From the IMG/VR virus record IMGVR_UViG_3300002461_000254, positions 1-59,137 of that record: DNA of 59,137 nt; one strand, given 5' to 3'. The notes below the pieces were generated by a model. It saw nothing but the letters and a program-made list of their open reading frames with translations, searched no databases and was not told where the DNA came from. Below, in pieces: positions 25,197 to 44,565 of the stretch. How positions within the stretch are numbered: the stretch's first letter is position 1; each line of letters opens with the position of its first letter. Made by a program: the position numbers and the translations under genes. The DNA is from a virus (taxonomy: Duplodnaviria > Caudoviricetes).

Positions 25197-25646
25197 ATGC
25201 CGCGCTACAATAAGGTCTATGCGGGTCCCGTGACCCAGGTCAGCCCGCAGGTGCAGGAGCGCGTCTGCGCTGCTGCCATCCTGCCGGGCACGGCTCTCAT
25301 CGAGTCGGGCGCCAACTTCGCTCAGGCGGGCGCCAACGCACTCACCAAGGTCTACATCGCCCAGGACAACTACCTCGCGCTCAAGGGCGTCGACGACGCC
25401 TGGCCGGCGAACGACCGGATCATCGGCATGGAGATGCTCGACGAGCAGTTCTTCAACGTCCGAGTCCCGACGGGCGTGAACGTCGCCCGCGGCTCCCAGC
25501 TCACCACCAATTCGGCCGGCAAGTTCGTGCTCGCGACCACTGGTCAGCGCGTGATCGCCATCGCCGAGGAGGCCTACAACAACACGTCCGGTGCGGACCA
25601 GCTCGTGCGCGCCCGCGTGGCCCGCAACCAGCTCGCCGCGGCCTAA
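25197..25646 (+). CDS. head decoration/cement protein
   Basis: 149 aa beta-rich protein between scaffold and capsid genes. Confidence 0.6.
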   Translation: MPRYNKVYAGPVTQVSPQVQERVCAAAILPGTALIESGANFAQAGANALTKVYIAQDNYLALKGVDDAWPANDRIIGMEMLDEQFFNVRVPTGVNVARGSQLTTNSAGKFVLATTGQRVIAIAEEAYNNTSGADQLVRARVARNQLAAA

Positions 25647-25659
25647 AGGGGACACTCCG

Positions 25660-26091
25660 ATGCGATACTTCGACGAACAGCTCGTCGCCAACTCTCGCCC
25701 CCATGCGGAGTGGTGGAACGAGGTTTCCATGGTGCGCGAGCACTTCCACCGGACGGAGGAGGGCCTTGCCTCTCTGACGGCCCAGTTCATGGGCAACGCC
25801 GCCTCGATCCTGCCGCGCGATGCGTGGCTCGACCTCGACGGTATCACCCGGCGCGTCATGCGCTCGGACGAAGGCCAGGTCTGGATGGCGGACCTCATGC
25901 CGCTCGCCCGCCCGGTCAACATCGGCAAGATCGTGGTGATGAACCGCGTCTCCAGCGATGCGGGTGCGGTGACGCGCTCGATCTCCGGCCAGGTGCCGGT
26001 CGCCATGGACAAGGTGACCTACGACTATCGCGGCTCGCCCGTGCCCATCTTCTCGACCGCCTATGGTCGCGAGTGGCGCGAGTGGAACACG
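25660..26091 (+). pseudogene. major capsid protein, 5' part (interrupted)
   Basis: 144 codons ending REWREWNT at the direct repeat; continues in frame at 44566. Confidence 0.88.
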
Positions 26092-26135
26092 GTCGGGCCG
26101 GAAAACCGAACAACCCATTGACATGAAAAGGAAAT

Positions 26136-26159
26136 AGGCCCTTCGGGGCCTGTTTTTTT
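26136..26159 (+). terminator. rho-independent terminator just inside the satellite left end
   Basis: AGGCCC-TTCG-GGGCCT followed by G and T7. Confidence 0.85.
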
Positions 26160-26279
26160 GCCCGGTGATTGAGCGACAAAGGGCGACGCATAACCCATTG
26201 AAAAGTCAGAGACCGCCGACGTTGCGCGGCGCCGCCGACCGGCAACGAACCGGCAAGAGAGCGGCCGAAAGGAGATGTC

Positions 26280-26483
26280 ATGACATCGGATAAACGACCC
26301 GATCTTTGTCACGGGATTGAAGAGATCGCCAAGCATCTTGGCCTGGAGGAGCGTCAAGCCCGCTACCTTCATGAACGGGGGGAGCTGCCCACTTTCAAGC
26401 TCCGGCGCTCTGTGTGCGCTCTGCGCTCGAAGCTCGACGCATGGCTTCTGAAAAAGGCCTCGGAGGGCTCCTCCCATGGCTGA
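26280..26483 (+). CDS. AlpA/Xis-like wHTH protein
   Basis: IEEIAKHLGL...LPTFKL...CALRSKLDAWL. Confidence 0.75.
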   Translation: MTSDKRPDLCHGIEEIAKHLGLEERQARYLHERGELPTFKLRRSVCALRSKLDAWLLKKASEGSSHG

Positions 26484-26730
26484 CTTCGCAACCACCGACG
26501 ACCGGCTGATTGCCGAGGTCCCCAAGAACCAGCGCGAGACGATCCACGTCGCCCTGCGCACCTTCCAAGGCAACCGCGGGATCGATCTCAGGGTTCACGC
26601 GACGAACCATGACGGGAAGCTGGTGCCGACGCCAAAGGGCGTGGTGATCAAGCCGGCGAAGCTGCGCGACGTGATCGAGGCGCTCCAGGCCGCCGAGAAG
26701 GCAGCGATCGGCGAGGGTCTGCTGCCATGA
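26476..26730 (+). CDS. PC4/p15-like ssDNA-binding protein
   Basis: KNQRETIHVAL..FQG..GIDLRV...PTPKGV. Confidence 0.8.
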   Translation: MADFATTDDRLIAEVPKNQRETIHVALRTFQGNRGIDLRVHATNHDGKLVPTPKGVVIKPAKLRDVIEALQAAEKAAIGEGLLP

Positions 26731-27215
26731 ACGACACCCCCGCCCAACCGTTCTGCATTCTTGGCATCGACCCCGGCATCAGCGGCGCGATCGCCTTCTA
26801 CTTCCCCGACCGACCGGATTTGATCGGGTGCGACGACATGCCGGAGGCCGACGGCGAGGTCGACGCGGTGTCCCTCGGCCAGCGCATCCGGCAGATGGCG
26901 CCCGACCTGGCCGTGATCGAGCGGGTGCATGCGATGCCAAAGCAGGGCGTCTCCAGCACCTTCAACTTCGGCGCTGCCTATGGGACCGCCCAGGGCGTCG
27001 TGCTCGCGCTCGGCGTCCCGCTTCTGAGGGTCACTCCGGGCGCGTGGAAGAAGCACTTTCGTCTGTCCTCGGACAAAGAGCAGGCGAGGGCGATGGCGAT
27101 CCGTCTCTGGCCGACCTCGACCCACTTCACCCGGAAGAAGGACGCCGACCGCGCCGAGGCCGCGCTGATGGCTCGCTTCATCGCCGAAACCCGGCCGGCA
27201 GGAGACCGCCGATGA
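26727..27215 (+). CDS. RuvC-like Holliday junction resolvase
   Basis: ILGIDPGISGA, AVIERV, TPGAWKK, DRAEAALMA. Confidence 0.85.
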   Translation: MNDTPAQPFCILGIDPGISGAIAFYFPDRPDLIGCDDMPEADGEVDAVSLGQRIRQMAPDLAVIERVHAMPKQGVSSTFNFGAAYGTAQGVVLALGVPLLRVTPGAWKKHFRLSSDKEQARAMAIRLWPTSTHFTRKKDADRAEAALMARFIAETRPAGDRR

Positions 27216-27451
27216 TCACTGAAAATGGATATGTTGAGATCGACGGCGGCACCCTCACCGAAGGCAGCGATGCCCGCCTGATCGGGACGCGCCGCTACTT
27301 TGTGACTCTCGTCAGCCGGATCGGCGAGCGGTGCTGCGTTTGGGACGGCCCATTCTATTCCGACGCGCTTACCGCGGCCACGGAGATCCGCAGCGAATCC
27401 GGCCTGCCGCTGAAAGACCTCACCGGCGAAACGACGGGAGCGGTCCAGTGA
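27212..27451 (+). CDS. hypothetical protein
   Basis: Coupled ORF with RBS. Confidence 0.55.
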   Translation: MITENGYVEIDGGTLTEGSDARLIGTRRYFVTLVSRIGERCCVWDGPFYSDALTAATEIRSESGLPLKDLTGETTGAVQ

Positions 27452-27723
27452 AGCTCCCCTCGTTCAATCTCGCGATCGCCTCAACCGAGGCCCGGACCGC
27501 CGCCATCGCCTTGGCATCGACCGCATCCGACCTCGTCAGCGAACGGAGGGTCCGGCGAAAGCGGGTGGAGCGGCGCGCGTCGGCGGAGCTCAAGGTGCTC
27601 GCCCGCAAGTGCCTGTCTCGGCAGGGAGCCTTCGACGACGAGGACCTCGCTTTCGTCGAGAAGGAGGCAGCGGAGGAGTTCAACGCCCGCCTGGCCCAAT
27701 GGCTGGGGGCTGCCCATGAATAG
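27448..27723 (+). CDS. hypothetical protein
   Basis: Coupled ORF. Confidence 0.5.
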   Translation: MKLPSFNLAIASTEARTAAIALASTASDLVSERRVRRKRVERRASAELKVLARKCLSRQGAFDDEDLAFVEKEAAEEFNARLAQWLGAAHE

Positions 27724-28033
27724 GCACCGGCTTCCAGATCGCCGCCGCTCGGAAACTCGGCAGGTGGCACACCGCGGCCAAGCGTTCGCCGTCAGCGTCG
27801 GCTTCTATCCCGATGGTCGGCCCGCCGAGTGCTTCATCTCGTCCGTGAAGACCGGCAGCGACTTCGCGGCCATCGCCAATGACGCTGCGGTGGCGGTGTC
27901 GATCGCCTTGCAGTACGGGGTGCCTCTCGAGGCTCTGGCATCGGCTATGTCGCAGGACCCGCAAGGCGGAGCCGGCAGCGTTCTCGGCGCCATCCTCAAC
28001 GCCATCGTTGACGAGCCGCCTCGGCCACGATGA
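27716..28033 (+). CDS. stand-alone TSCPD domain (NrdJ C-terminal-like)
   Basis: RHRLPDRR, GFYPDGRPAECFI, SIALQYGVPLE. Confidence 0.75.
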   Translation: MNRHRLPDRRRSETRQVAHRGQAFAVSVGFYPDGRPAECFISSVKTGSDFAAIANDAAVAVSIALQYGVPLEALASAMSQDPQGGAGSVLGAILNAIVDEPPRPR

Positions 28034-28653
28034 ACGAGGCCGGTCGGCAGCGCGACGATATTCTCGACCGCGCGGGACTGATGGCAGACTGGCTCGCCCA
28101 AGCGTTCGGGGCGATCGGGGACGGCAGCGCTGCTGAAGCCGCACGGTGGCTCGCCGCGCATGGCGTGCCAGCCGACCTGATAACCGACCTGCCGATCCTG
28201 CCCGCTACCGTCCGATGGCTCGACCCTGGCGATGGCTTTGCGTTCGCCTCCACCGGCTCCCGGGCGCTGGTGTTCCCGATTTCCGATTGTGAGGCCGCCG
28301 AGGCCGACTTCGGCGACCTTCTCGCATTCGACCCTGCCGCGCCTGACCGCTTCGAGGTCGCCCGCGGCGGGGCATGGGCGCTCGGCGAGGACCAGGTCAG
28401 CGCCGTTCAACTCCGTCTGCACAACACTCCCCTTCAGCTTTGGCGCAACCCCCTCCGCTGGCTTCAGGCCGGCCGGCGCGGGGTCGTCATCCTCGACCAC
28501 GCGAGGGCACCGCATTGGCTCAGACAGATCGGCCCCATTCGAGCGCAGGACGAAGCGCACCGTCAGGAGGTCGCGGCGATGTTCCGCCGTTGGCGGGCCA
28601 TCCCGGACATTGGACTTCCTCCGGCCCAATCACCCATCGCAGCAACACCCTGA
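28030..28653 (+). CDS. hypothetical protein
   Basis: Coupled ORF; LWRNPLRWLQAGRRGVVILD. Confidence 0.65.
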   Translation: MNEAGRQRDDILDRAGLMADWLAQAFGAIGDGSAAEAARWLAAHGVPADLITDLPILPATVRWLDPGDGFAFASTGSRALVFPISDCEAAEADFGDLLAFDPAAPDRFEVARGGAWALGEDQVSAVQLRLHNTPLQLWRNPLRWLQAGRRGVVILDHARAPHWLRQIGPIRAQDEAHRQEVAAMFRRWRAIPDIGLPPAQSPIAATP

Positions 28654-28662
28654 AGGTGCAGC

Positions 28663-28893
28663 ATGCCGCATAGAACGAGCCCGCGTTGCGCCGTCTGCGC
28701 ATTCTTCAGCCCCGTGCTTGGGAACCCCGAGTTTCAGCCGCCCGCGAACCTGCGGATGGGCGAGTGTCGCGCCATGCCTCCGAAGGCAGCTGGTGACGAT
28801 GACGGCGCGCTGATCCGGGGGCGCGGCATTTGGCCGGCCGTCGAGCCGGAAGACTGGTGTGGCCATCATGCGGAGCGTCCCGATGCAGGATGA
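28663..28893 (+). CDS. small Cys-rich (putative Zn-binding) protein
   Basis: CAVCAFF...GECRAMPP...WPAV...DWCGHH. Confidence 0.65.
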   Translation: MPHRTSPRCAVCAFFSPVLGNPEFQPPANLRMGECRAMPPKAAGDDDGALIRGRGIWPAVEPEDWCGHHAERPDAG

Positions 28894-30187
28894 AACCGGG
28901 CCGCTCACCGTCGAGCAGATTGTCTGGCACCGGAAGTTCGGCGTGGGCACGGTAGCCGTCCCAGACGATACCGCGGGGATGGTCGGTGTTGAGTTCGCCA
29001 CCGTGGGACGGAAGCGCGTCATGCGTTCATTCCTTTCCACGCGCCCATTTCCCGCCATCGAGCCGGCCGCTTTTGAGCCGGCGCGGCGATCCGGCCCAGC
29101 CCTAACCATCGTCGCAGCATCAACACTCGCCGCAGGGCGTGCCACGCCGCGGCAAGAGCATGTCGCGGGAATGATCCCGGCCAAGAATGTGACGCTGCTG
29201 TTCGGAGACGGCGGCACCGGCAAGAGCCTCCTGGCACTGCAACTCGCGTTCTCAACAGCGACCGGCCATCCATGGATAGGGATGCCCACCGAAGAGGGCC
29301 GCACGCTGTTCCTCACGGCCGAGGACGAGGTTGAGGAGGTGCATAGGCGCTTGGAGAGCATCTGCCTGAAGACGGGCTATGACCTCGCCGAGGTGGCCGA
29401 GCTCCACATCCTCAGCCTCGCCGGTAAGGACGCCCTCCTGGCCACGGCTGAGGGCCGGTCGGGCATTCTCCGGCAGACGCCACTACTCGGACAGTTGGCC
29501 GCCTGGATCGGCCAGCGCAAACCCGCTCTGGTGGTCCTTGACACCCTGGCCGACCTATTCGGTGGAGAGGAGAACGTCCGATCCCAGGCGCGTCAGTTCA
29601 TCTCCATTCTCCGTGGGATCGCCATCGAGCACGGCGCGACCATCGTGCTTCTCGGACACCCATCGCTGTCCGGCATGACCAGCGGCGCCGGTACGTCCGG
29701 CAACACAGCCTGGAGCAACTCCGTCCGCTCCCGCCTCTACCTCGAAAGACAGGTCGTGCGCGAAGGTGAAAGGATGGCAGAGCCGGATCCCGATGTCCGC
29801 GTCCTGCGCGTCATGAAGGCCAACTATGGGCGCGTCGGCACCGAGTTGCGAGTGCGCTGGCAGGACGGGGTGTTCGTGCCCGTCGAGAACAGTATCGGAG
29901 GTGCTGGTCTGGTGGCAGCCGGGTTAAAGGCCGAGCGCGTGTTCCTCGACCTCGTGGCCACATACACAGCGGAAGGCCGAAGCGTCAGCCCAGCGCCGTC
30001 AGCCGGCTACGCCCCCACGGTGTTCGCCGCCGACGCCAGGGCAGAGGGGCTTACCAAGGGCGCCCTCGCCAAGGCCATGAACCGATTGTTCGCCTCAGGA
30101 CAGATCGCCGTGGAAAGCTATGGCCCTCCCTCCAAGCTCAGGCAGCGGATCGTGGTCAAGGAAGTGAGGCGCTATGATGCCGATTAG
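28883..30187 (+). CDS. AAA_25/RepA-like SF4 helicase
   Basis: GDGGTGKS, LVVLDTL, LLGHPS, SGNTAWSNSVRSR, KANY. Confidence 0.9.
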   Translation: MQDETGPLTVEQIVWHRKFGVGTVAVPDDTAGMVGVEFATVGRKRVMRSFLSTRPFPAIEPAAFEPARRSGPALTIVAASTLAAGRATPRQEHVAGMIPAKNVTLLFGDGGTGKSLLALQLAFSTATGHPWIGMPTEEGRTLFLTAEDEVEEVHRRLESICLKTGYDLAEVAELHILSLAGKDALLATAEGRSGILRQTPLLGQLAAWIGQRKPALVVLDTLADLFGGEENVRSQARQFISILRGIAIEHGATIVLLGHPSLSGMTSGAGTSGNTAWSNSVRSRLYLERQVVREGERMAEPDPDVRVLRVMKANYGRVGTELRVRWQDGVFVPVENSIGGAGLVAAGLKAERVFLDLVATYTAEGRSVSPAPSAGYAPTVFAADARAEGLTKGALAKAMNRLFASGQIAVESYGPPSKLRQRIVVKEVRRYDAD

Positions 30188-30190
30188 GTA

Positions 30191-30290
30191 CCGACGCCCT
30201 GCCGACGCCCTTCCAACGCCCTTCCAACGGGGTGTGTGCTCCAACCCCCCATACCCCCCACCGGGTTGGAACACCCCGGGCGTTGGAACG
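30191..30290. repeat. iteron-like repeats (putative satellite ori)
   Basis: 11-nt tandem CCRACGCCCTK x3 plus a partial copy, and inverted copies GTTGGAA / GGGCGTTGGAA. Confidence 0.65.
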
Positions 30291-30533
30291 CCGGGGTCAA
30301 CCCGCGAGACTGAAGGCAGGCCAGCCCGCGACAGCAACGCGAGGAGGTGCCAATGTCGATAGGAGGGCAGAATAGATGGCGAAAAACTCCCCCAGATCGA
30401 AAGGCCATGCGACGGCTCCGATACACGGTAGCGGAGCTATGTGCTTATTGGGGAACGCTTTTTTCGCTTGCGTTCATTCTTGCGGTCTCCTATCTTTAGC
30501 GGTGCTACAGCAATGCTAAGGAAGAGACGCAAG

Positions 30534-31193
30534 ATGCAGGTCTTCGGCTACATCCGAGTGAGCACGGCGGAGCAGTCCAAGCGGGGCGAAAGCCTGGATG
30601 CCCAGCGCCGCATGATCGAAGGCTATGCCATGATGAAGGGCTGGCAGCTGGCCGAGGTCTTCGTCGAGGCTGGGGTGTCTGGATCGGTCCCGTTGGCGGA
30701 ACGCCCTGAAGGAAAGCGACTGCTAGCCCTCGTCGAGAAGGGCAACGCGGTGATCACGCCGAAGCTAGACCGCATGTTCCGTTCGGCGGCCGATGCGCTC
30801 GCAACCCTTGAGGTTCTCAAGGCCGATGGTGTGTCGCTGCACATGATCGACCTCGGCGGCGATGTGTGCGGTAACGGCATCAGTAAGCTCGTCTTCACGA
30901 TCCTGTCTGCCGTCGCTGAGAGTGAGCGGGACCGCATCCGCGAGCGCATCCGGGACGTGAAGCAGAGCCTTGCCGCTCAGGGCCGATACAATGGCGGCAA
31001 GCGCCCCTTCGGCTTCGACGTTCTCGGCGATCGGCTTGTGCCGAACGAGGCGGAGCAGTCCGCCCTGGCCGACATGAGGGCGATGCGAGAGGCCGGTGCT
31101 AGCCTGCCAGCCATCGCGGCTAAGCACGGGACTCATGCGGCGACCGTGAAGCGATATCTTGAGCGCAAAGGCCATCTCGCCACCACATCTTGA
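30534..31193 (+). CDS. serine recombinase (resolvase family)
   Basis: GYIRVSTAEQ, GVSG, KLDRMFRS, VAESERDRIRER. Confidence 0.92.
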   Translation: MQVFGYIRVSTAEQSKRGESLDAQRRMIEGYAMMKGWQLAEVFVEAGVSGSVPLAERPEGKRLLALVEKGNAVITPKLDRMFRSAADALATLEVLKADGVSLHMIDLGGDVCGNGISKLVFTILSAVAESERDRIRERIRDVKQSLAAQGRYNGGKRPFGFDVLGDRLVPNEAEQSALADMRAMREAGASLPAIAAKHGTHAATVKRYLERKGHLATTS

Positions 31194-31301
31194 TTTGCGA
31201 CAGCCTATCGCATAGTCTTTCAGGCGTCGGCGTCGCTCCGACACGCTCATGGCGCCATCTGGCGAGCGGGCTCCCTCACCACTCAGGGAAGCCTCGTCAG
31301 C

Positions 31302-31967
31302 ATGCCGGCCGAAGCCCGCACCGATACCGAGAAGCAGCAGCGGTCAGCTAAGGCTCGGCGACTGCTGAAGCACCGTTGCAAGGTGTGCAACCATCCTGAG
31401 CGGGTGCGTATCGAAACGCTCCGCCTCGCGGGCGTCACCCTCGACAATCTCGCGGCCCGGTTCGGGCTTCAGCGCGACCTCATCTGGCGGCACATGAGGG
31501 ACCACGTCGACAGTGAGCGGCGCGCCCAGCTGATCGCCGACGTGCCCATGTCCGAACTAGCCGAGCGGGCAAACGCGGAAGGGACCAGCCTCCTCGATAA
31601 CCTGGCGATCGTCCGCAAGACCGTGATGGATGCGATGGTCGAGGCGGCGACGGTAAAGGACCGCCGCGCGACAGCATCGCTGGCCGGTCGGGCAACGGAA
31701 GTGCTGGTCGAGATGGGTCGGCTCACGGGCGAGATCCTCCGCAGCGGCCCAGTCACGAACGTGACGCAGAACGTCGCCGTGTTTATGGCCAGCCCAGCCT
31801 ATGCGAACCTTGAGGCGATGCTGATCCGCAAGCTTCAGCGGCACCCCGAGGCCCTTCGCGACGTGCTGGAGGGCTTGCAGGAGCTTCAGACAGCGCCTCC
31901 GGCAATTGAGGGAACGATCTCCCTTCCTGTGATCAGGGAGGCTGGCGATGACCGCGCTGCCGCGTGA
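31302..31967 (+). CDS. putative satellite terminase small subunit / HTH protein
   Basis: CKVCNHP plus HTH, directly upstream of the second terL. Confidence 0.55.
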   Translation: MPAEARTDTEKQQRSAKARRLLKHRCKVCNHPERVRIETLRLAGVTLDNLAARFGLQRDLIWRHMRDHVDSERRAQLIADVPMSELAERANAEGTSLLDNLAIVRKTVMDAMVEAATVKDRRATASLAGRATEVLVEMGRLTGEILRSGPVTNVTQNVAVFMASPAYANLEAMLIRKLQRHPEALRDVLEGLQELQTAPPAIEGTISLPVIREAGDDRAAA

Positions 31968-33255
31968 TGCAGACCTCTATGGGCGGCTGGCGAGCGCCCT
32001 GTCGAGCAGTTGGCGTCTTCGGGCTCGGCCCGATCAGCTGCCCCCGGAGGGGGAGGATTGGATCACCTGGCTCATCCTCGCCGGCCGCGGCTGGGGAAAG
32101 ACCCGCACGGGCGCCGAGTGGGTTCAGGAGCAGGTGATGAGCGGGGCGAGCCGCATCGCCCTAGTTGCGCCGACTGCCTCGGATGCCCGGGACGTCATGG
32201 TCGAGGGGGAGAGCGGGCTTTTGGCCATCGCTCCTCCGCACATGAGGCCGACCTATGAGCCATCGAAGCGCAGATTGCTGTGGCCGAACGGTGCCATTGG
32301 CACGACGTACAGCGCAGATGAGCCGGAGCGTCTGCGCGGGCCCCAGCACGACGCGGCATGGTGTGACGAGCTTGGCGCGTGGCGCTATCCCGAGGCGTGG
32401 CCGATGCTGCAGATGGGCCTTCGGCTCGGCGCGCGGCCGCGCTGTGTCGTGACGACGACCCCCCGACCGATCAAGCTGGTGCGGGACCTGGTGGAGCAGC
32501 AGGGCAGGGGCGTGGTGATCACGCGCGGCCGCACCCTGGACAATGCGGCGAACCTTGCGCCGACCTTCCTGAAGGCAATCGAGGGCCTGTACGGCGGCAC
32601 GAGGCTCGGCCGGCAGGAACTCGAAGGCGAGCTGCTAGAGGACACGCCCGGCGCGCTTTGGCAGCGGGCGTGGATTGATCGTGACCGGGTGGACCGGCCA
32701 CCTGAACTGGTGCGGATCGTTGTGGCCGTCGATCCGGCGGTGTCGAACAATGAGGGATCGGACGAGACAGGGATCGTCGTCGCCGGCATCTGCCGTCAGG
32801 GCCACGTCTACGTGCTCGACGACCTGACGCTGAAGGCCAGCCCCGAGGGATGGGCGAAAGCAGCGGTCAAGGCTTTCCATGGGTGGGAGGCGGACCGGAT
32901 CATCGCAGAGGTGAACAACGGCGGCGCGCTGGTCGAGGCCACCATTCGGATGGTCGATCAGAACGTGCCCTATCGAGAGGTGCGGGCGAGCCGCGGCAAG
33001 GTTTCCCGAGCGGAGCCGGTATCCGCTCTCTATGAGCAGCAGCGGTGCCATCACGTCGGGGCGTTCGATGCCCTCGAAGACCAGATGTGCGCCTTCACTA
33101 GCGACTTCGACCGCTCGAAGATGGGCTACTCCCCGGACCGGGTCGACGCCTTGGTCTGGGCGATTACCGAGCTGGCCGTCGACCAAAACCCCGTCAGATC
33201 GGCAGGTGTCTTCCTGACCAGCCGCGTGCGCCAGATCGGTGGAGCGGCATCATGA
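31948..33255 (+). CDS. terL: satellite terminase large subunit
   Basis: AGRGWGKT, AWCDE, VTTTP, SPDRVDAL; collinear with the helper TerL. Confidence 0.93.
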   Translation: MTALPRDADLYGRLASALSSSWRLRARPDQLPPEGEDWITWLILAGRGWGKTRTGAEWVQEQVMSGASRIALVAPTASDARDVMVEGESGLLAIAPPHMRPTYEPSKRRLLWPNGAIGTTYSADEPERLRGPQHDAAWCDELGAWRYPEAWPMLQMGLRLGARPRCVVTTTPRPIKLVRDLVEQQGRGVVITRGRTLDNAANLAPTFLKAIEGLYGGTRLGRQELEGELLEDTPGALWQRAWIDRDRVDRPPELVRIVVAVDPAVSNNEGSDETGIVVAGICRQGHVYVLDDLTLKASPEGWAKAAVKAFHGWEADRIIAEVNNGGALVEATIRMVDQNVPYREVRASRGKVSRAEPVSALYEQQRCHHVGAFDALEDQMCAFTSDFDRSKMGYSPDRVDALVWAITELAVDQNPVRSAGVFLTSRVRQIGGAAS

Positions 33256-33403
33256 CGGGTTTCCAGAACCACTCCGTGGACGCAGGCGCGCGAGGCGTCG
33301 GCGACTTCAATCAACTGCGAGATGGCGGGAGTGGTGACGCTTCCTTCGTCGATTGGTCGCCGCTCGCGGGCCTCGCACCTTTCCAACCGAAGAGGATCAC
33401 GAC

Positions 33404-33673
33404 ATGACGACCCGAACTTTTGTGACCGCCGGGGCAGGCCAGAAGCCGACCGACGAAGACTTCGAGGCTCTCCGCAAGAGGACCGACGCGGCGGTTGCCA
33501 GCGTCGAGGAGATGCTGAAGCCGGAGAATCTGACGAAGCTGGTCAGCGATGCCCTGGCGCCGGTTCTGAAGGATCTCGGCATCAAGCCGCAGACCGACGC
33601 GATGAACGCGGCCGGCGGGCGCAAGCCGGCGCCTGGCAGCAACCCGTTCAAACTCCCGAAGGCGGAGAACTGA
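33404..33673 (+). CDS. mini scaffold-like protein
   Basis: Ends NPFKLPKAEN versus helper scaffold PSFKLPKAEA. Confidence 0.7.
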   Translation: MTTRTFVTAGAGQKPTDEDFEALRKRTDAAVASVEEMLKPENLTKLVSDALAPVLKDLGIKPQTDAMNAAGGRKPAPGSNPFKLPKAEN

Positions 33674-33675
33674 CC

Positions 33676-34296
33676 ATGTCGAGCCCCTTCAGCAGCAAGT
33701 CGGCGGCGGATATTCGGGGCCGCCTCCTCGAAATCCGCCGAGAGGAGGAGCGCCACGCCGCGCGCGATCTTGACGCCGAACTGGCGGAGGTCATGGCGGC
33801 CGGCGGCGACCTCGACGCGATCGAGGCCAAGCACCTCGACGCCGAACGGGTCATGCGGCGCCTGCGAGTGGAGCGACGCGCGCTAGAGGCGGCGTTGCCG
33901 GAGGCCGAGCGGCGCGCTGGCGCGGCAGCGGTAGCCAAGTTCGCCGAAGAGCATGAGACCCTCGCCAAGGCGGCTCAGGCGGCTGCAGTGGCGGCTGTGG
34001 CGGCGTGGCAGCGGTTCCGCCAGGATCTGACCTCCTTCGCCGGCCATCAGGCGGAGGCCAGCCGGCTGACACACGCTGCGGATCAGGCGGCAAGCAACAG
34101 CGGCGCCGAGATGCCGATGATGGGCATGTTCAACAGCGCGGCGCTGACGGCTGTGCTCGCCGACCTCAACGAAGCCGATGCCGATATCCGCAGGACACTG
34201 GCGAGTGCGGACCAGCGCATGCACGTCGGCAAAAACTGGACACTCATGGCGCGTCCGATCGACGGCCCGCAGGCCGCCAATGACCAGGCTGCCTAA
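33676..34296 (+). CDS. all-helical coiled-coil hypothetical protein
   Basis: Ala/Glu/Arg-rich heptads. Confidence 0.65.
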   Translation: MSSPFSSKSAADIRGRLLEIRREEERHAARDLDAELAEVMAAGGDLDAIEAKHLDAERVMRRLRVERRALEAALPEAERRAGAAAVAKFAEEHETLAKAAQAAAVAAVAAWQRFRQDLTSFAGHQAEASRLTHAADQAASNSGAEMPMMGMFNSAALTAVLADLNEADADIRRTLASADQRMHVGKNWTLMARPIDGPQAANDQAA

Positions 34297-34534
34297 TCTG
34301 ACCGCAGCGGCCATCTTGCCTCGCCCGCCGGCATCTGCGGCGGCCATGCTGCAGGCCATGGAGCGGGCCGCGGAGCCGGCGCGCGCGGTGTTCGATCGCC
34401 AGCGCGGCCGGGCCATCGCGGCGCTCGACAGCACCGGCGCCCGCCAACTCGTTCTTGGGTTTCTGGACAACTTCCGGCGGTCCCGAAGCCTCTATCCGGA
34501 CCTGCCGGTCAGCGAAACCACCTGGAGACTTTAC

Positions 34535-34921
34535 ATGGACCTTTCCGACCTGATTTTCACCGATCGCGCCGTCATGACGCTTCGCCACCCCGTCTCGGGG
34601 GCGGCGATGAAAACGGACGACGGCGACCCGATCACCATCACGCTCGGCAGCATGGATTCGGCGGCATGGCGCCGGACCCAGTCCGACATCCTCGCCGAGG
34701 CGCCGGCCGGCAAGATCTCCGGCGACCAGATGGAGAACCACACCTTCCGCCTCCTCGCCGGCGTCACCCTCGGCTGGGACAACGTGATCGTCGACGGTGT
34801 GCGGCCGGCCTGCAACACCGAGGAGGCCGAGCGGCTGTATCGCAAGCTCCCCTGGCTGCGGCAGCAGGTCGAGGCCTTCGTCGGCAATCGCCAGAACTTC
34901 CACCGCAAGGCGGCGGCCTGA
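34535..34921 (+). CDS. tail assembly chaperone (may start at 34280)
   Basis: LRHPVSG...ITITLGSMDS...LLAGVTLGWDNV...PWLRQQVEAFVGNRQNF, immediately before a TMP. Confidence 0.7.
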   Translation: MDLSDLIFTDRAVMTLRHPVSGAAMKTDDGDPITITLGSMDSAAWRRTQSDILAEAPAGKISGDQMENHTFRLLAGVTLGWDNVIVDGVRPACNTEEAERLYRKLPWLRQQVEAFVGNRQNFHRKAAA

Positions 34922-34936
34922 TAAGGGGAGGCGAAC

Positions 34937-37594
34937 GTGACGGACATCGCACGGCTTGGCATTCAGGTCGACACCAACGCCGCGAAGGCGCGCGACGACC
35001 TCAAGGGACTGGCCGCGGCCAGCAAGGATGCCGAGCGTGCAGCGTCCGGCACGTCGTCTGCTTTCCAGGCGGCGGCAAACTCCGGCAGTCAGTTCGCCCG
35101 CGCTGCGCAAAGCTCGGTGCAGGCGAACGATCGCCTCACCACCAGCCTGAGGGGGCAGCGCGCCGCCCTCCAGAACCTATCGTTCCAGATCAACGATATC
35201 GCCACGTCGCTGGCGTCGGGATCCAGCCCCTTTCAGGTTCTCGCTCAGCAGGGCGGGCAGGTCATGCAGGTCTGGCAGCAGTCGCCGGGCGTGTTCGGCC
35301 AGGCGGCTACGGCGGTCGGCCGCTTCATGCTGTCGACCAAGGGGGCCGCCGCGACCGTCGCTGGCCTGACGATTGGAGGCGTGGCGCTCTATGAGCGCTG
35401 GGCCGGGGCGCAGCGCGAACTATCCCGCGCCCTTCAGGGTACCGGCCGGGACGCGGGGGCGACAACCGCGCTCCTAAACGCGGCGGCCGAAGCTGCTGCT
35501 CGTGCTCAGGGCGTCTCGGTAGCACAGGCGCGAGGGACAGTCGGGGCGCTGGCTAACACCGGCAGGGTCGGCGCGGGAATGCTGTCGCCGATTGCTTCCA
35601 TGCAGCGAGACCTTGCGGCCACCCTTGGCATTCCCGGAGCCGACGCGAACAAGCTCCTGGCCGAGTCGTTCGCAGATCCGATCCGCGGCGCGGAGATGCT
35701 GAACCAGCGTCTCGGCGGCCTCACTGAGCGCACGCGGCTCTACATCGCCGAGCTTGTCGCGAGCGGCAAGGAACAGCGAGCGCAGCAGGTCCTTATGGAC
35801 ACCTTCGCGCCGCGGCTCGGCAAGGCCAGCGAGCTGACCAGCATCTGGGCCCGGGCATGGGAGACGCTAGGCGCCAAGGCAGGCAACGCTGGAGACGCCA
35901 TCGGCCGAGCAATCGAGCGCGGGCTGGCCCAAGCCTCCGGACCGAGCTTCGCGGACCAGGCTGCCCAGCGTCTGGAGCAGCTTCAGGCACAGGCGCAGGG
36001 GCTGGTGGTCGACCGCGCGACCGGCCGGGAGCTTGGCAACCGGTCGGCTTTCGGTCCTCTCCAGGAGGATATCCAGAAAGAGAACGACGCCCGGAAGCGC
36101 GTGTCGGCCGAGCTGGAAATCCAGCGGGCGGCGATGCATGCCATCCGCGTCGCTCAGGACACCATCAACCTCGCCGTCGAGCGCCAGGCCGGCATGGAAG
36201 CGGAGATCGCTCGCCAGCGTCGGTCGATCGACCGCGGTACCGAAGCCGCGCGAAGCCTTGGCGTGCCCGAGCGGCAGCAGGTCGATCAGGTAACGAACCT
36301 GGCCGACGCATACCGTCGGCTCTACAAGGCCAAGGAAGACGCCTATCAGCGGCAGGGCGACGAAGGGGGCAACGAAGCCTATCAGCGAGCCCGCTCCGAG
36401 ATGATGACCGCGCAGCGAGCATTGCGCGATCAGCTTCAGGAAAATGGCCGGGGCGTCTTCGCCCGCGATGGAGCGCTGTTGCTGGACAACAATCAGCTTC
36501 TCGAGCGGCGCATCTCGCTTCAGGACCAGGTCAACCAGCGCGCCACGGTCGAGCGGCAACAGATCACCGCCGTCACAGCACAGCAGCAGCAGCAGGCTGC
36601 CGCGGCTCAGGTCATTCAGCAGGCGCGGGAACAGGGGGCGTCGGCAGGCAGCGCCGAGCTCGTCGCCGCCAAGGCTCTTGCGGCGGCGGAGACAGTCCGC
36701 GTCGGCATCAGTCACCAGCTGCTCCAGGCGGCCCGCGAGCGCATTCGGTCAACCCAGATGCAGATCGATGCCGAGCGCGCCTCGGCGGCCGTCATGGGCG
36801 GCTCAATCGCCGTCCAAGAGCGCGTGAGGCTGGAAACCCAGCTCATCAATGATGCTCGAAGAGAATATGCGCGGCTCGGCCTACAGATGCCGCAGGCCGA
36901 AATCGAGCACTATCGCCGGCTGGCGGAGGAAATGGGTCGCGTCCGCCAAGAGCAGGCGTTGATGCGCGCGACCCGCGATGCCTCGTTCGACCGTCAGACC
37001 ATGTTCATGGGCGACGGCGAGCGCAACATCGCAAACCAGTTGCGCGGCATCTACGGCGACGGCTGGCAAAGCCAAATGAACTCGGCGCTGGCGAGCCAAC
37101 TCAGGTTCAACGATCAGCTGCGCGCCACAGCCGACCTCATGTCCGGCTTCGGATCGGGAATGGTGTCAGACCTCCGTAGCGGCGTTGGCCTGTGGGGGGC
37201 GCTCGGCAATCAGGTGGCCCGCGTCGGCGACCGTCTAATGGCGATGGCGCTGGACAGTGCGCTGAGGTCTCTTCTCGGCTCGCTGCTTGGAGGCGGCGGT
37301 GGTGGTGGCGTCTTCGGGTCCCTACTCGGCGGTCTATTCGGCGGTGGCGGTGGGACCATTTCCCCCTTCGGGCAGTACGCCACGGGCGGCGCTGTCAGCG
37401 GCCCTGGCACAGGGACTAGCGACTCCATCTTAGCCCGGCTCTCACATGGGGAGTTTGTCGTGAACGCGAAGCAGACGGCTATCCATCGCCCCCTGCTAGA
37501 GGCGATCAATTCCGGCGTCCGCGGCTTCGCGGGCGGTGGGATGGTGCGGCCGTCCTATCCCGGCGTACATTGCGGCGAACTGGTGCTGCCATGA
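34937..37594 (+). CDS. satellite tail tape measure protein
   Basis: NLSFQINDIATSLASGSSPFQVLAQQGGQ; C-terminal ATGGAVSGPGTGTSDSILARLSHGEFVVNA. Confidence 0.9.
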   Translation: MTDIARLGIQVDTNAAKARDDLKGLAAASKDAERAASGTSSAFQAAANSGSQFARAAQSSVQANDRLTTSLRGQRAALQNLSFQINDIATSLASGSSPFQVLAQQGGQVMQVWQQSPGVFGQAATAVGRFMLSTKGAAATVAGLTIGGVALYERWAGAQRELSRALQGTGRDAGATTALLNAAAEAAARAQGVSVAQARGTVGALANTGRVGAGMLSPIASMQRDLAATLGIPGADANKLLAESFADPIRGAEMLNQRLGGLTERTRLYIAELVASGKEQRAQQVLMDTFAPRLGKASELTSIWARAWETLGAKAGNAGDAIGRAIERGLAQASGPSFADQAAQRLEQLQAQAQGLVVDRATGRELGNRSAFGPLQEDIQKENDARKRVSAELEIQRAAMHAIRVAQDTINLAVERQAGMEAEIARQRRSIDRGTEAARSLGVPERQQVDQVTNLADAYRRLYKAKEDAYQRQGDEGGNEAYQRARSEMMTAQRALRDQLQENGRGVFARDGALLLDNNQLLERRISLQDQVNQRATVERQQITAVTAQQQQQAAAAQVIQQAREQGASAGSAELVAAKALAAAETVRVGISHQLLQAARERIRSTQMQIDAERASAAVMGGSIAVQERVRLETQLINDARREYARLGLQMPQAEIEHYRRLAEEMGRVRQEQALMRATRDASFDRQTMFMGDGERNIANQLRGIYGDGWQSQMNSALASQLRFNDQLRATADLMSGFGSGMVSDLRSGVGLWGALGNQVARVGDRLMAMALDSALRSLLGSLLGGGGGGGVFGSLLGGLFGGGGGTISPFGQYATGGAVSGPGTGTSDSILARLSHGEFVVNAKQTAIHRPLLEAINSGVRGFAGGGMVRPSYPGVHCGELVLP

Positions 37595-38379
37595 CATGCA
37601 TTGTGATGTTTGCCGGAGACGACGGCGTGCTCGCCCTATCCGATACCGCCTGCATCTCGATGCGCGGCGAGATCATGTGCTTCATGGACAAGGTGGAGAT
37701 GCACCCGACCCGCCACATGTGCATCGCGCAATCTGGCCAAGCTGGTTTCCTCCCCGCCCTTTGGGTCGTGTTGGGCAACGAGATCAGCAGCCTCGACGAC
37801 TTCGAGGCCGCGTTCCCCGCTGCGGCAAGCTACGTCTACCGCCACATGATGTTGCAGACCGGCGGCAATGTGCTGGAGGTCGGGCTTGCCGTCGGTGGTT
37901 GGTCTGCGCGGCGCAACGGCTACACCCTTCTCTGTACGTCCTCCTACGAGAAGACGAGCCGCAACCTCGAAACAGACGAGATCACCGTGCGGGAGCCGTT
38001 CTCGTTCATCGAAGGCGGCATGTGGATGAGCGGCAACCCGGATCCCGACGACCTGCGGGCGGTCGGACTCGATCCCGATGACATTCGCGGGGAAATGGAT
38101 CGTCGCGATCGACTGGACTTCGGAACGCGGCTGGTCTTTGCCAAGCGGCGATCCTCAGGGCCACGCGAGCCTTCAGCGGAGAGCAGCGCGCCCTACTACC
38201 TCTGCGGGGGCAGCATTGTCATGTCCCGACTGTGGGACGGCGGAGCATCTCAGCAGGTGCTTTACCGCTGGAAAGACCAAGTTGGCGACACGGTAGACCT
38301 CTCACAGGACGAACCGCCGCCCAAGTTCTCGTTCGGCAACGTCGAAGACACGCCGGTTGAAACCGCCGAACAGCCGTGA
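37591..38379 (+). CDS. hypothetical protein, possible Ntn-hydrolase fold
   Basis: N-terminus MTCIVMFAGDDGVLALSDT. Confidence 0.45.
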   Translation: MTCIVMFAGDDGVLALSDTACISMRGEIMCFMDKVEMHPTRHMCIAQSGQAGFLPALWVVLGNEISSLDDFEAAFPAAASYVYRHMMLQTGGNVLEVGLAVGGWSARRNGYTLLCTSSYEKTSRNLETDEITVREPFSFIEGGMWMSGNPDPDDLRAVGLDPDDIRGEMDRRDRLDFGTRLVFAKRRSSGPREPSAESSAPYYLCGGSIVMSRLWDGGASQQVLYRWKDQVGDTVDLSQDEPPPKFSFGNVEDTPVETAEQP

Positions 38380-38727
38380 ATGAATAGCGCCGAGAGGTGC
38401 AACATGATCCGAGCCGCCAGCTTTGCAGCTGCCATCGTTATCCAGGCCGGCACGGCTCAGGCCCAAGATCGCCCGGCCTATTGCCCCATCCCGGAACGCT
38501 CCTCGGCGGACACGCTCAACGTGATCATTCACTACTGCCGACCCGGCGACCTGATCGGCATCCCTGCCGACAACCCGGAGTGGGTGGCGCGGATTTGCGA
38601 CCTCTCTAAGCCCACCACGCCGACGGGCCGCTTCGTCGTCTGCCATCTCGCCGCGAGCATCGGGCCTTACAAGGGCGTACCCGGGTCGTCCTCTCTGCTC
38701 CGAGAGCAGGTCATCCGACCGCGCTGA
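38380..38727 (+). CDS. small secreted Cys-containing protein
   Basis: Signal peptide ending AQA-Q. Confidence 0.5.
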   Translation: MNSAERCNMIRAASFAAAIVIQAGTAQAQDRPAYCPIPERSSADTLNVIIHYCRPGDLIGIPADNPEWVARICDLSKPTTPTGRFVVCHLAASIGPYKGVPGSSSLLREQVIRPR

Positions 38728-38794
38728 GGCCTCGCGCCCCGTTCCGCCGATAGCCGTCCCTGCTATCCTCAGGCGCCGAATCAGGGAGCGCGCC

Positions 38795-39214
38795 ATGGCG
38801 AGACGACCGATCCCAGTGCATGAGCCTGAGGTGGTGTCGGCAGGCGCCAAGCGCCGTTGGGGCGATGACGAGAAGGTTCCGACGACAGCCATTGGCACTC
38901 TTGTGGTCGACGGTGTCGGCCTAAGCAGTCGGTATGACAAGGCTCATGAGATTGAGGCCATGAGGCGGATGGTTGAGGGAGTGGAGCCCCACCTGCGGAG
39001 GCACATCCTTAGCATCTGGTGCGATAGCAAGGCCGAGGCGTGCTATTCCGTGTCTCTCGACGGTTGCGACGAGCGGACTGCCGTGATTGTGGTCGATCAA
39101 CTCGAAGAAGCCTGCCGCGTAAAGAATGGCGGCCACAACGGCATGTGGGTCAGCGGACACCAAGGCGGAGGGCTCTCGCGCGACCCCTATTGGGCTGGTG
39201 ATGACCAGTTGTGA
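38795..39214 (+). CDS. hypothetical protein
   Basis: RBS; coupled to the next gene. Confidence 0.6.
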   Translation: MARRPIPVHEPEVVSAGAKRRWGDDEKVPTTAIGTLVVDGVGLSSRYDKAHEIEAMRRMVEGVEPHLRRHILSIWCDSKAEACYSVSLDGCDERTAVIVVDQLEEACRVKNGGHNGMWVSGHQGGGLSRDPYWAGDDQL

Positions 39215-40134
39215 CCAGCCCGCCTCGTATCCTTCTACCTTCGCGCCTTGAGGGCACCGCTATCCACCGCGTGACGAGCGCGATCACTGCGGCGTGTCCT
39301 GATGGGCTCCCGAAGGAGATTGTCTTCGATATGAGCAGCCTGCGCTTCGTCCGTCCCGCCGGGGTCGTGCTGCTTAGCAACGTCGTCTCGTGGATGAAAC
39401 ACCGGGATTGCAGAGTTACGTTTGCCGGAACATCCACGTCCGCGGGATGGAGCCGACCCGAGGGGGTCACCTACCTCGATAACGCGCATTTCTTTCGACT
39501 GCATCAAGGTGCCCCGCTAAGCCCGGCGGCGAAGTCGTATCGGTCGATGCAACCGCTGCGGCTTATATCAAACAACGATGTGCACGCTTGGCTGGAAAAT
39601 AATCTGATACCTTGGCTAGCGAGTATTCTGCGCGTCAACACAGCGACTTTGGCGGATTACAAGGTTTGTATCAGCGAACTATTCAACAACATTCACGACC
39701 ATTCGGCTAATGAGATTGGAAGCATTCTGGTCCAACATTTTGGAGCAGAGAACACAGTCCGCATTGCCATCGCAGATTGGGGTGTAGGGATCCCAGCGAC
39801 GGTCAGAAGGGTTGAGCCGGAGATTGTGGGGCATGGCGATGCAATTGTGCGGGCTGTCCAGCCCGGCTTCACATCGAAATCCTGGCCGCGTAACCAAGGG
39901 GCAGGCTTGGCGCACCTTCTGGACAAGGTGGTCGGATCAAACCGCGGTTCCGTACTAATCATGTCGAGCAACGGAACTGTTCGCTTTGAGCCCGCCGGGG
40001 AGGGCGGAACTGGTTGGAGTTCCGTCCCGCTGTCTGATGCCGGATTCTGCCCAGGCACCGTTGTAGAAATCCACCTACGTACCGATACTATCGAGCACGT
40101 GCCCGAGAGCAGGGAGGACATGGAATGGCCCTGA
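39211..40134 (+). CDS. STAS-like + GHKL/HATPase protein
   Basis: FDMSSLRFVRPAG; ELFNNIHDHS, IADWGVGIP, NQGAGL, PGTVV. Confidence 0.85.
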   Translation: MTSPPRILLPSRLEGTAIHRVTSAITAACPDGLPKEIVFDMSSLRFVRPAGVVLLSNVVSWMKHRDCRVTFAGTSTSAGWSRPEGVTYLDNAHFFRLHQGAPLSPAAKSYRSMQPLRLISNNDVHAWLENNLIPWLASILRVNTATLADYKVCISELFNNIHDHSANEIGSILVQHFGAENTVRIAIADWGVGIPATVRRVEPEIVGHGDAIVRAVQPGFTSKSWPRNQGAGLAHLLDKVVGSNRGSVLIMSSNGTVRFEPAGEGGTGWSSVPLSDAGFCPGTVVEIHLRTDTIEHVPESREDMEWP

Positions 40135-40421
40135 TAAAGGTCGCCGACATCGCTTCCGGGGCGGACACCGGGGATCAAGGCGCCGCTGTCGCCGAGCACC
40201 TGGAGGTGGCGCTGAGCCGCGCCGACGCTGTCACGCTATCGTTCGATGGGGTCTCGACAGCGACCTCGTCTTTCGTCAATGCAGCGCTGCTGCCGATCCT
40301 CGACCGCATGAGCTTCGAGGAGTTCAAACGCCGAGTACGCATCGTCGATTCCACCCGCCAGATCAACGGAATGATACGGGAGCGCGTGATGCATCGCGCC
40401 GCCGCGCTCGCAGCTCACTAG
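40125..40421 (+). CDS. STAS-like (DUF4325) protein
   Basis: VTLSFDGVSTATSSFVNAAL. Confidence 0.8.
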   Translation: MALIKVADIASGADTGDQGAAVAEHLEVALSRADAVTLSFDGVSTATSSFVNAALLPILDRMSFEEFKRRVRIVDSTRQINGMIRERVMHRAAALAAH

Positions 40422-40538
40422 GCGCCGCGTTCCCCTTCCGGTCCTACAGGCAGTTGCGGTGGGAAGGCGCGCGCATCACTCTCATGCCTTGCCCGCTCCG
40501 GTATCTCATGCCTCAATAAGGCAACCGGGGAGGGTGCA

Positions 40539-41144
40539 ATGCGCGTCTGGCTTTCACTGGCGGTGATGGCGGCGATGTCGGCCGGCGCTCTTGCTCAGGA
40601 TCTCGAAACGCAGATGCGGGACTGTAGAACGAAGACGGTCGCTGCGGAGCGGCTAGAGTGTCTTGATGCGATCCCCCTGCCAGAACTTCCGGCAGCGACC
40701 GAAGACAGTGCAGCGGCATGGTCGATCACTGAAGGTAAGTCACCGCTCGATGACAGCCCCTCGGTGACGGCGGCGTTGGCAGCGCAGCCTCCCAGCAAAC
40801 TATTGATGATCGTGCGCTGCCGAGAGTCGCGGACGGAGTTATTGGTATCCGCAGACGGACCGATCGATTTCACCCAGCAACTGGCAGTAAGCTATCGCCT
40901 AGGCCAAGCGCCGGCAGTGCAGGCAAATTGGGGCACGTCCACCAACGGGCGGGCAGTGTTCTCACCGCCAGCGGCGACCATCTCGACTATCAGGAGTATT
41001 CCCGAGAACGGTCGGGTGTTCTTCCGTGTGCGGGGCCAAATCGCTCAGCACGAGGGGACTTTCAACACGGCCGGCATCGATGAGGTCCGCCGCAGGGTTT
41101 CGATAGCCTGCAGGTGGCCTGCTGAGGGCGCGCGGCGCCGCTGA
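40539..41144 (+). CDS. secreted VasI/TagO-like protein
   Basis: Signal peptide; RLECLD; WSITEGKSPLDDS; IVRCRESRTEL. Confidence 0.65.
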   Translation: MRVWLSLAVMAAMSAGALAQDLETQMRDCRTKTVAAERLECLDAIPLPELPAATEDSAAAWSITEGKSPLDDSPSVTAALAAQPPSKLLMIVRCRESRTELLVSADGPIDFTQQLAVSYRLGQAPAVQANWGTSTNGRAVFSPPAATISTIRSIPENGRVFFRVRGQIAQHEGTFNTAGIDEVRRRVSIACRWPAEGARRR

Positions 41145-41390
41145 GGACTATGCGAAGCGCAGGCCAAGCATAGGCTGGCCGACGAGTATGACGCAGCGCA
41201 AGAACGTGGCGAGGTTCGTAGGCCCAATAACGAGAAAATCACTTCCAGCGCGGAAGCGGTTTCTGTCTCTGACCTTGGCCTGTCCCACAAGGACATCCAC
41301 GAAGCCCGCATCATCCGTGACGCCGAGAAGGCTGACCCAGGCATCGTCCGGCGCGCAAGCGTTCGCCCCCGCGGGGACGGCGCTTCTTGA
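41145..41390 (+). pseudogene. start-less fragment of a common phage protein
   Basis: EAQAKHRLADEYDAAQERGEV...LGLSHKDIHEARIIRDAEKADPGIVRR, no start codon. Confidence 0.55.
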
Positions 41391-41688
41391 TCGGTTAGGG
41401 AAATCAGTTCATCGTGTCCGTGGGTGTGGAAACCCGGACCTGAGTAGGGACGTCGATCCGTTGGCGCGGATCACGTGCCCATCGCGTGAGAGCCTTGGCG
41501 GGCTCGACATCGCGTGGAGCGCCTTGGCGGGCGCCCGTCCTGGCCATTATGGCCGGGGGCGGTGCGCCATGTCCAGCGGGAAACCGTAAAAGCGCGTCGA
41601 CGTGTCTCTCAGGCACGTTTCCACCCCCCGGCTGCCCGGTCTGTTACCGGGCGCGGCTGTGGAAAGCCGATCACCTGAGAGCACCACC

Positions 41689-42336
41689 ATGAACACGATG
41701 CACGCCACGGCGGCACCGGGGCTCGTCCCCGACCATCCCAGCAACATTCTCGATATCCTCGACCGCCTCCGACTGGAGGCTAAAGGCGACGTTCGGCGCA
41801 TGCGCCGCGCGGCAGCTGAGCGCGTCGATGCCCTGATTGCCTTTCTCGACGCCACCGATGGCGACGCCGACCTTGAAGACGGCGATGGCCTCGAAGACGG
41901 TTGGGACCTTGAGGACGGCGGCGAGAGCGAACCGACACTCGGCGCCAGCGAAACCCGCCTTTCGATCCCTGAGCACCGCACATGGTGGGGGCCGATAGTC
42001 GAGAGTTGCGAGCCGCTCGGCTCCCAGTCGTCTTGGGCGGCTGGCCACCTGCGCAGCGATGACGCCGAAGAGGATGTGCAGGACGAGCCGCACGACGCTG
42101 GATACGAGGGCAACGACGAACCCTCTCTCGGCTGGCCGGAGGGCCGCGAAAACCAGCAAGGCGGGCTCTTCGGCACCGATGACACCGAAGACGAGCACGA
42201 CGGCCGCGAGCCCGATGACGAGGATAGCGCCGTCGACGACTTCGGCTGCGACGACGAGGAGTCTGACAGCTTCTACGCCGCTGGCCCTGAAGCCCACTTC
42301 CAGATGGCGGCGGGCTTCGAGCACTCCGCTATCTGA
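41689..42336 (+). CDS. highly acidic hypothetical protein
   Basis: D/E-rich with repeated EP(S/T)LG. Confidence 0.7.
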   Translation: MNTMHATAAPGLVPDHPSNILDILDRLRLEAKGDVRRMRRAAAERVDALIAFLDATDGDADLEDGDGLEDGWDLEDGGESEPTLGASETRLSIPEHRTWWGPIVESCEPLGSQSSWAAGHLRSDDAEEDVQDEPHDAGYEGNDEPSLGWPEGRENQQGGLFGTDDTEDEHDGREPDDEDSAVDDFGCDDEESDSFYAAGPEAHFQMAAGFEHSAI

Positions 42337-42389
42337 CGACACCCGGCCGGCGCCACGCGCGCCGGCCACCATCCCATCAGGAGAAGACC

Positions 42390-44544: not shown

Positions 44545-44565
44545 CGCCCAAAAGAGTGGAACACG

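Follow-up and report, generated by a model that had tools for sequence, protein, structure and literature searches.

A protease with a nested or fused scaffold is a known arrangement in phage head genes, represented by lambda C/Nu3 and P2 gpO. The precedent for an alternative scaffold supplied by a satellite comes from the staphylococcal island SaPI1: its small CpmB protein, modelled up to residue 72, yields small capsids, and the C-terminal helix-and-hook that it has in common with the 80alpha scaffold occupies, in competition with that scaffold, the same site on the coat-protein N-arm, as described in the available part of the source (PMC5644958). The precedent, which an initial annotation of the locus described here had invoked, is real. 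A second protein, Rcm of SaPIpT1028, interacts with the helper capsid protein, has a multi-helical topology like that of the helper scaffold and is thought to compete with it, according to the available part of another report (PMC12409344). P4 Sid (PMC7552001) and PLE TcaP (PMC10945586) are, in the portions of the sources at hand, proteins with which satellites turn the coat protein of another phage into small capsids; both act outside the shell, unlike the internal scaffold of a helper.

Here, we describe an 89-aa protein, hereafter mini, encoded by an element inserted in a siphophage prophage. Judged from sequence comparisons, mini is a strong candidate for a protein that redirects capsid size, in a family of satellites and a group of hosts for which none has been described, and its closest functional parallels appear, by analogy, to be SaPI1 CpmB and SaPIpT1028 Rcm. 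Like CpmB, mini is small and helical and bears the C-terminus of the helper scaffold; unlike CpmB, its similarity to the helper extends to the N-terminal helices. The setting also differs from that of SaPI1 and 80alpha, since the putative helper scaffold is nested in a protease gene and the host genome is of a high-GC alphaproteobacterium type. No relationship to CpmB was detected when the mini profile was compared with PDB chains, which should include the CpmB entry 6B23, and the lack of a match to PDB chain sequences or Pfam argues that mini is not a relative of CpmB by descent. Rcm belongs to another satellite family and another host, and it is likened to mini by description, not by sequence. 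As in lambda C/Nu3 and P2 gpO, the helper gene of 373 aa joins a protease domain to a putative scaffold part behind it, whose internal start is conserved; in contrast to those systems, mini is encoded on its own in the satellite, carries an additional N-terminal motif and is missing some 50 residues in the middle. Sid and TcaP differ from mini in working on the exterior of the shell, and the mini family had no meaningful match among PDB chain sequences.

The DNA analysed, referred to as the window, is the whole IMG/VR record IMGVR_UViG_3300002461_000254 (59,137 nucleotides, about 67% G+C). Family searches of its ORFs identified a lambdoid siphophage prophage, the helper, whose genes are listed in Table 1 together with those of the element; no tRNA genes were found in the window. 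The nearest named phage is the Sinorhizobium phage phiLM21 (50,827 bp), which has a gene order identical to that of the helper and a capsid protein with 69.5% identity over the C-terminal part. The head genes of the helper run in the order portal, 373-aa gene, decoration protein and capsid protein, and the last of these is interrupted.

Table 1. Features of the helper prophage and of the inserted element (window positions)
Feature	Position	Strand	Basis or remark
Helper integrase	3251-4330	minus	Family search
Helper RecT, exonuclease, repressor and replication genes			Family searches
Helper TerS	20724-21431		Family search
Helper TerL	21349-22662		Family search
Helper portal	22662-24041		Family search
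Helper 373-aa head protein, phrog_760	24073-25194	+	PHROG match, AlphaFold model, Foldseek
Putative nested scaffold, 120 aa (last 120 aa of the 373-aa ORF)	24832-25194	+	In-frame conserved start at Met254
Helper head decoration protein	25197-25646		Family search
Helper major capsid protein, N-terminal 144 codons, severed by the insertion	25660-26091	+	DUF6260 / phrog_771
12-bp direct repeat, left copy (attachment core)	26080-26091		Read directly
Serine recombinase (Resolvase domain), additional to the tyrosine integrase	30441-31193	+
221-aa ORF placed where TerS would lie, running into the start of TerL	31302-31967	+	Function suggested by position
TerL of the element, 53% identical to helper TerL	31948-33255	+
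Mini scaffold, 89 aa	33404-33673	+	ORF (ATG at 33404, stop at 33671-33673), alignment, profile evidence
206-aa ORF, beginning 2 nt past the mini stop	33676-34296	+	No family match
Tail-assembly-chaperone-like ORF, phrog_313	34280-34921	+
Tape measure protein of the element, 885 aa	34937-37594	+
HATPase-like ORF (phrog_3364), then DUF4325 STAS-like ORF	39211-40421	+
HTH / excisionase-like ORF	42725-43321	+
Tyrosine integrase, right end of the element	43321-44544	+
12-bp direct repeat, right copy	44554-44565		Read directly
Helper major capsid protein, C-terminal 208 codons	44566-45192	+
Helper connector and tail genes, then tape measure	53184-55256 (tape measure)		Family searches
Helper J-like fibre	Runs past the window end		Family search

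The element lies within the major capsid gene, which breaks off after codon 144 and restarts directly behind the right-hand repeat. It measures 18,474 bp with one copy of the 12-bp direct repeat counted, and it carries 24 ORFs, all on the + strand, among which family searches detected no capsid, portal or prohead-protease gene. Its length agrees with the figure of about 18.5 kb in the initial annotation. The gene content marks the element as a phage satellite rather than a whole phage, and it is predicted to depend on the capsid genes of the helper. Among 80 related phage loci retrieved from viral contigs, the two capsid halves were contiguous in every one, and 10 of them contain the exact 12-bp core. 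Since the element interrupts the capsid gene, the capsid protein cannot be made before excision, an arrangement that would tie the life cycles of helper and element together. A literature search, which was not exhaustive, returned no description of a satellite inserted in the capsid gene of its helper.

Window positions 25600-45250 were then compared with the Logan contigs of four public sequencing runs. One contig, from the probable source sample, bridged the left junction with zero differences. Exact short pieces of the element, falling within 26523-42783 and present at low depth, were found in two drinking-water metagenome runs of another study, so the element is not confined to the probable source sample; where it is inserted there cannot be seen in the contigs of these two runs. 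Neither an empty site nor a circle junction appeared in the Logan contigs of the four runs, which cannot show absence, and the joints listed there were rejected as apparently spurious, having sides of 20-41 letters and 85% likeness. No RNA runs with the sequence were listed among public sequencing runs.

The element further encodes an HTH protein, a PC4-like protein, a RuvC-like resolvase, an AAA_25 primase-helicase and the serine recombinase; several unknown ORFs and a VasI-like protein are also present. Mini is located between TerL and the 206-aa ORF, as a separate ORF neither nested in nor fused to a protease. The 221-aa TerS-like ORF had no family match and is unlike the helper TerS. For the 206-aa ORF, the nearest named Atlas cluster was P4 Psu (capsid decoration / polarity suppression) at a score of 0.88, a mere lead to which Pfam and PDB sequence searches lent no support. 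The element tape measure showed 60% identity over residues 3-618 to that of one related phage locus (L053) and was barely similar to the 690-aa tape measure of the helper, with one matching segment of 81 residues at E 0.053. A satellite with its own tail-length ruler is unusual. Farther to the right, the HATPase-like and DUF4325 ORFs form a two-gene module that may be accessory or defence cargo.

Of the element proteins, TerL has homologues at 9 of the 80 related phage loci, the chaperone at 5 and the tape measure at 14; the genes specific to the element, namely those for mini, integrase and primase together with the TerS-like and 206-aa ORFs, are absent from all 80. The 206-aa and TerS-like ORFs had zero matches in viral contigs, and the element primase matched eight metagenome loci that have the primase alone in common. 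Scanning of positions 30200-38500 yielded 0 promoter-like sites and nine terminator-like sites, none of them between TerL and mini.

The helper protein to which mini is related was modelled with AlphaFold (42 sequences, mean pLDDT 66). The model contains a confident domain at residues 1-166 and, toward the other end, helices at 256-272, 275-321, 327-332 and 335-344, followed by a disordered tail (351-373, pLDDT <50). Foldseek matched the N-terminal domain to the T4 gp21 capsid assembly protease (5jbl; E 1e-6, probability 1.00, TM 0.70 by target), with no other match below E 0.01. At the sequence level, neither the 373-aa protein nor its alignment matched any PDB entry, and the fold search alone worked. 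An in-frame start at the Met254 position is conserved in 71 of 71 relatives, being ATG in 66 and GTG in 5; a Shine-Dalgarno-like run lies 4-12 nt upstream in 65 of the 66 ATG cases, in varying amino-acid contexts. Furthermore, public gene calls include many ORFs of 120-125 aa that begin at this position. The conservation of the internal start suggests that the C-terminal part of the helper protein is a lambda Nu3-like nested scaffold, probably translated separately. The 120-aa helper scaffold assumed in the initial annotation is therefore a reasonable reading given the fold, the internal start and the gene order, which argue for it short of proof. More than 400 scaffold relatives were found; the nested scaffold goes unnamed in current annotations, where it falls under phrog_760 and is a 'hypothetical protein' in phiLM21.

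Similarity between mini and this helper part had been reported at both ends, with a shorter middle, and pairwise alignment recovered both matches; the missing stretch, of about 50 residues, lies at roughly 299-350 of the helper protein. The Smith-Waterman score of mini was 62 against the whole 373-aa protein and 60 against its last 121 aa, each reached by 2 of 2000 shuffles, and an end-free global alignment that included the tail scored 45, reached by 15 of 2000. BLASTP was weak alone (E 0.023 for the tail segment and 0.11 for the helix segment). Profile comparison gave a clearer signal as the mini family was enlarged: hhalign of 3 minis against 42 helper proteins returned 32% and E 5e-4, and that of 8 minis returned 83% and E 9.2e-6, placing mini residues 14-59 on helper residues 253-298. 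We also ran an HMM of the helper C-terminal part on the 701 window ORFs, the seven other minis and 1600 shuffled minis. All eight minis ranked directly behind the helper itself, above every one of the 1600 shuffles and the other 699 window ORFs. The mini of the window was the weakest of the eight at 12.6 bits (P0128 reached 24.6), close to the best shuffle at 10.7 bits, so that the homology rests on the family profile and the tail.

The tail provides independent evidence because it lies outside the local alignments. Mini and the helper protein both end with FKLPKAE plus one residue, and a degenerate form of this motif occurs at exactly two sites in the six frames of the window, those of the helper protein and of mini, each one residue before a stop. 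Together, the hhalign result, the HMM ranking and the tail motif bear out the claim that mini is a shortened homologue of the helper scaffold part; we consider a distant homology very probable, and on these profiles mini is a divergent, truncated offshoot of a phrog_760-type scaffold part. It retains the first helix of the helper part and the beginning of the long second helix; the remainder of the latter is missing, as are both short helices. The joint alignment shows the same central stretch to be absent from all eight minis, and this stretch is the best conserved in the helper scaffold family. At the other end, mini carries about 17 extra N-terminal residues compared with the helper part.

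A Shine-Dalgarno-like run, GAAGAGGA, lies upstream of the mini ATG, and the Met encoded there is also the first residue of P0002 and P0003, the closest relatives. The family is genuine and rare, with six clusters among 1.84 billion representatives (E up to 0.001) and three clusters at 90% identity among 5.8 billion. Its eight proteins are 88-117 aa long, show 31-81% identity to the mini of the window and have in common the N-terminal motif, two helices and a tail of one type; one of them is a hypothetical protein of Citromicrobium. The tail is doubled in tandem in two distant relatives. The tails of P0125 resemble the rarer 'LAPKGE' subtype found in the scaffolds at loci L072, L075 and L081, which points to a correspondence between each mini and the type of its helper. 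The model of mini, of low confidence like the tail of the helper model (8 sequences, mean pLDDT 64), places one helix at 17-37 and another at 40-57, with a disordered linker leading from them to the C-terminal peptide.

Searches of other collections with the family added little. None of the eight minis matched a Pfam family at E up to 1, and the source label of P0125, 'Mor family transcriptional regulator', was rejected for want of support from Pfam. The family had no significant match among PHROGs, where the phrog_760 profile misses mini; the eight-mini profile gave two unrelated weak matches only among PDB chain sequences at E up to 10, and an ESM Atlas search with mini was uninformative, with scores of 0.85 or lower. 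The mini alignment had zero matches in viral contigs, P0125 had zero in metagenome contigs, and no mini match was found in the phage and plasmid collections. The family profile was likewise negative in 401 of 401 genomes sampled from one phylum and 401 of 401 sampled from one class, with at most 12 candidates scored per genome. A match in genome contigs (L001) was discarded as spurious, being inside an FAD-monooxygenase-like ORF. Weak matches of P0125 in viral contigs were also set aside: they fall on the N-terminal stretch of a 437-aa ORF at two low-GC phage loci, and this ORF, which follows a 261-aa ORF downstream of the portal, is read as a capsid protein.

A tail of the FKLPKAE type ends 72 of the 75 classified helper-type scaffolds, and the exact 7-mer common to mini and the helper is present in 17 of 76 relatives. 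The tail is most likely the peptide by which the helper scaffold and the protease-scaffold fusion dock on the inner side of the capsid protein. We compared it with the capsid N-terminus across helper-type loci (L003-L082; window positions 25660 and 25168) and found, in 70 of 71 phages, a match between the tail residue after the proline (K or E) and capsid residue 5 (D or S). In the window, the corresponding residues are K in the mini tail and D in the resident capsid protein. A capsid tree from which the first 12 residues had been left out gives three changes of the capsid trait and four of the tail trait; all three independent tail/capsid pairs are concordant, a number too small for significance (sign test p 0.25). 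The covariation hints, weakly, at contact between the tail and the N-terminus of the capsid protein; the coat-protein N-terminus is also where CpmB and the 80alpha scaffold attach, as stated in the available part of PMC5644958. We regard it as probable that mini binds the capsid protein through its tail.

As a shortened relative of the helper scaffold, mini is a good candidate for a protein that makes smaller heads fitting only the element. The best explanation overall, which we hold tentatively, is that the satellite encodes a shortened homologue of a Nu3-like scaffold that shifts head assembly to a smaller size. The satellite would excise first, restoring the capsid gene of the helper, and mini would be expressed from a satellite packaging operon consisting of the TerS-like ORF, TerL, mini, the 206-aa ORF, the chaperone and the tape measure. 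Mini would then occupy the scaffold site on the helper capsid protein, competing with the scaffold and the protease-scaffold of the helper, and the shorter internal scaffold would turn assembly away from T=7 and toward a smaller shell (probably T=4) with room for the 18.5-kb satellite but not for the larger helper genome. Filling of the small shell would fall to the terminase of the satellite: its TerL, related to that of the helper, would suit the helper portal, and the unrelated TerS-like ORF would confer a packaging specificity of its own. That mini redirects head size is, as a claim by itself, possible at somewhat less than an even chance.

The head sizes can be compared through the structure of a relative, since the helper capsid family includes gp39 of Shigella phage Sf11 (9OCB; E 4.7e-110), whose T=7 shell has 415 copies and holds a genome of about 50 kb. 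The 18.5 kb of the element corresponds to 0.36 of the 50.8 kb of phiLM21; set against the helper DNA that the window shows, which is at least 37.7 kb once the element and the left flank are subtracted, it is at most 0.49. Simple geometry gives a T=4/T=7 volume ratio of 0.43. These values are consistent with a T=4 satellite head, and such a fit is no proof, because headful packaging could place two or three copies in a full-size head. The missing conserved stretch might also be what contacts the capsid or sets its size, in which case mini might only block assembly.

A related account, to which we give a minority share of belief, puts the emphasis on the interrupted gene and the peptide: the capsid protein would be withheld until excision, a 7-residue docking peptide would outcompete the scaffold, and T=4 heads would be filled by the satellite terminase. 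The added proposal that the docking peptide is a modular signal of protease, scaffold and mimic, doubled in some mimics, is held with the same reserve. It is unlikely, if a little less so than the readings that follow, that mini is a decoy that blocks the docking site of the scaffold and protease without giving small heads, in which case full-size heads would carry the satellite, either as a multimer or through headful packaging. The tail and the context support a decoy just as they support a size-redirecting scaffold, and mini lacks the most conserved central part, maybe needed for scaffolding proper; however, the two N-terminal helices and the N-terminal extension are kept in relatives that are only 31-37% identical, which is in excess of what a pure tail decoy would need, and abolishing capsids profits no satellite that lacks a capsid gene of its own. 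Less likely again is that the element is a deleted phiLM21-like phage and mini a remnant, either functionless or a scaffold for heads of normal size. Its position after TerL is where a scaffold would be expected if portal and protease had been deleted, and the TerL, chaperone and tape measure of the element do have homologues at helper-type loci, in the numbers given above. A remnant would hardly keep a shortened layout and an extra N-terminal motif in eight proteins of 88-117 aa down to 31-37% identity, though, and the mini ORF is intact, has a ribosome-binding site and is coupled to the next gene; the remaining ORFs of the element are likewise intact and lie on a single strand.

We think it improbable that the tail is a portable targeting peptide that loads mini into procapsids as cargo, for example for early action in the next cell. 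A short terminal peptide behind a disordered linker would be well built for such a role, it is also found on the helper protease fusion, and it is duplicated in two family members. The body of mini is, however, homologous to a scaffold and not to any effector, and internal proteins of the scaffold kind have usually been cleaved or removed by the time the DNA enters, which counts against delivery. A chance resemblance, with mini an unrelated small protein such as a regulator, is the least credible of the alternatives and close to negligible. It could appeal to the BLASTP values, which are not significant alone, to the short, alanine-rich and helical character of the proteins and to the Mor label of one relative. 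Against it stand two collinear matches, the second of which is confined, over six frames, to the extreme C-termini of the two proteins, the profile results, which favour homology, and the failure of the eight minis to match Mor or any other Pfam family.

If mini does act as a shortened scaffold that redirects head size, the finding would extend a strategy that is restricted, in the literature surveyed and the available parts of its sources, to staphylococcal islands (CpmB, PMC5644958; Rcm, PMC12409344). A case unrelated in sequence would represent an independent origin of internal-scaffold mimicry, in siphophages of the phiLM21/Sf11 type and in high-GC, alphaproteobacteria-like hosts. The two proteins, 120 aa and 89 aa with the same ends, would also make a very small pair for relating scaffold length to T number. 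The 7-residue tail is a candidate scaffold-coat contact across a large phage group, for which the capsid structure 9OCB is available. Should the account in which the capsid protein is withheld until excision be the true one, the docking peptide would be a phage counterpart of the cargo-loading peptides of encapsulins.
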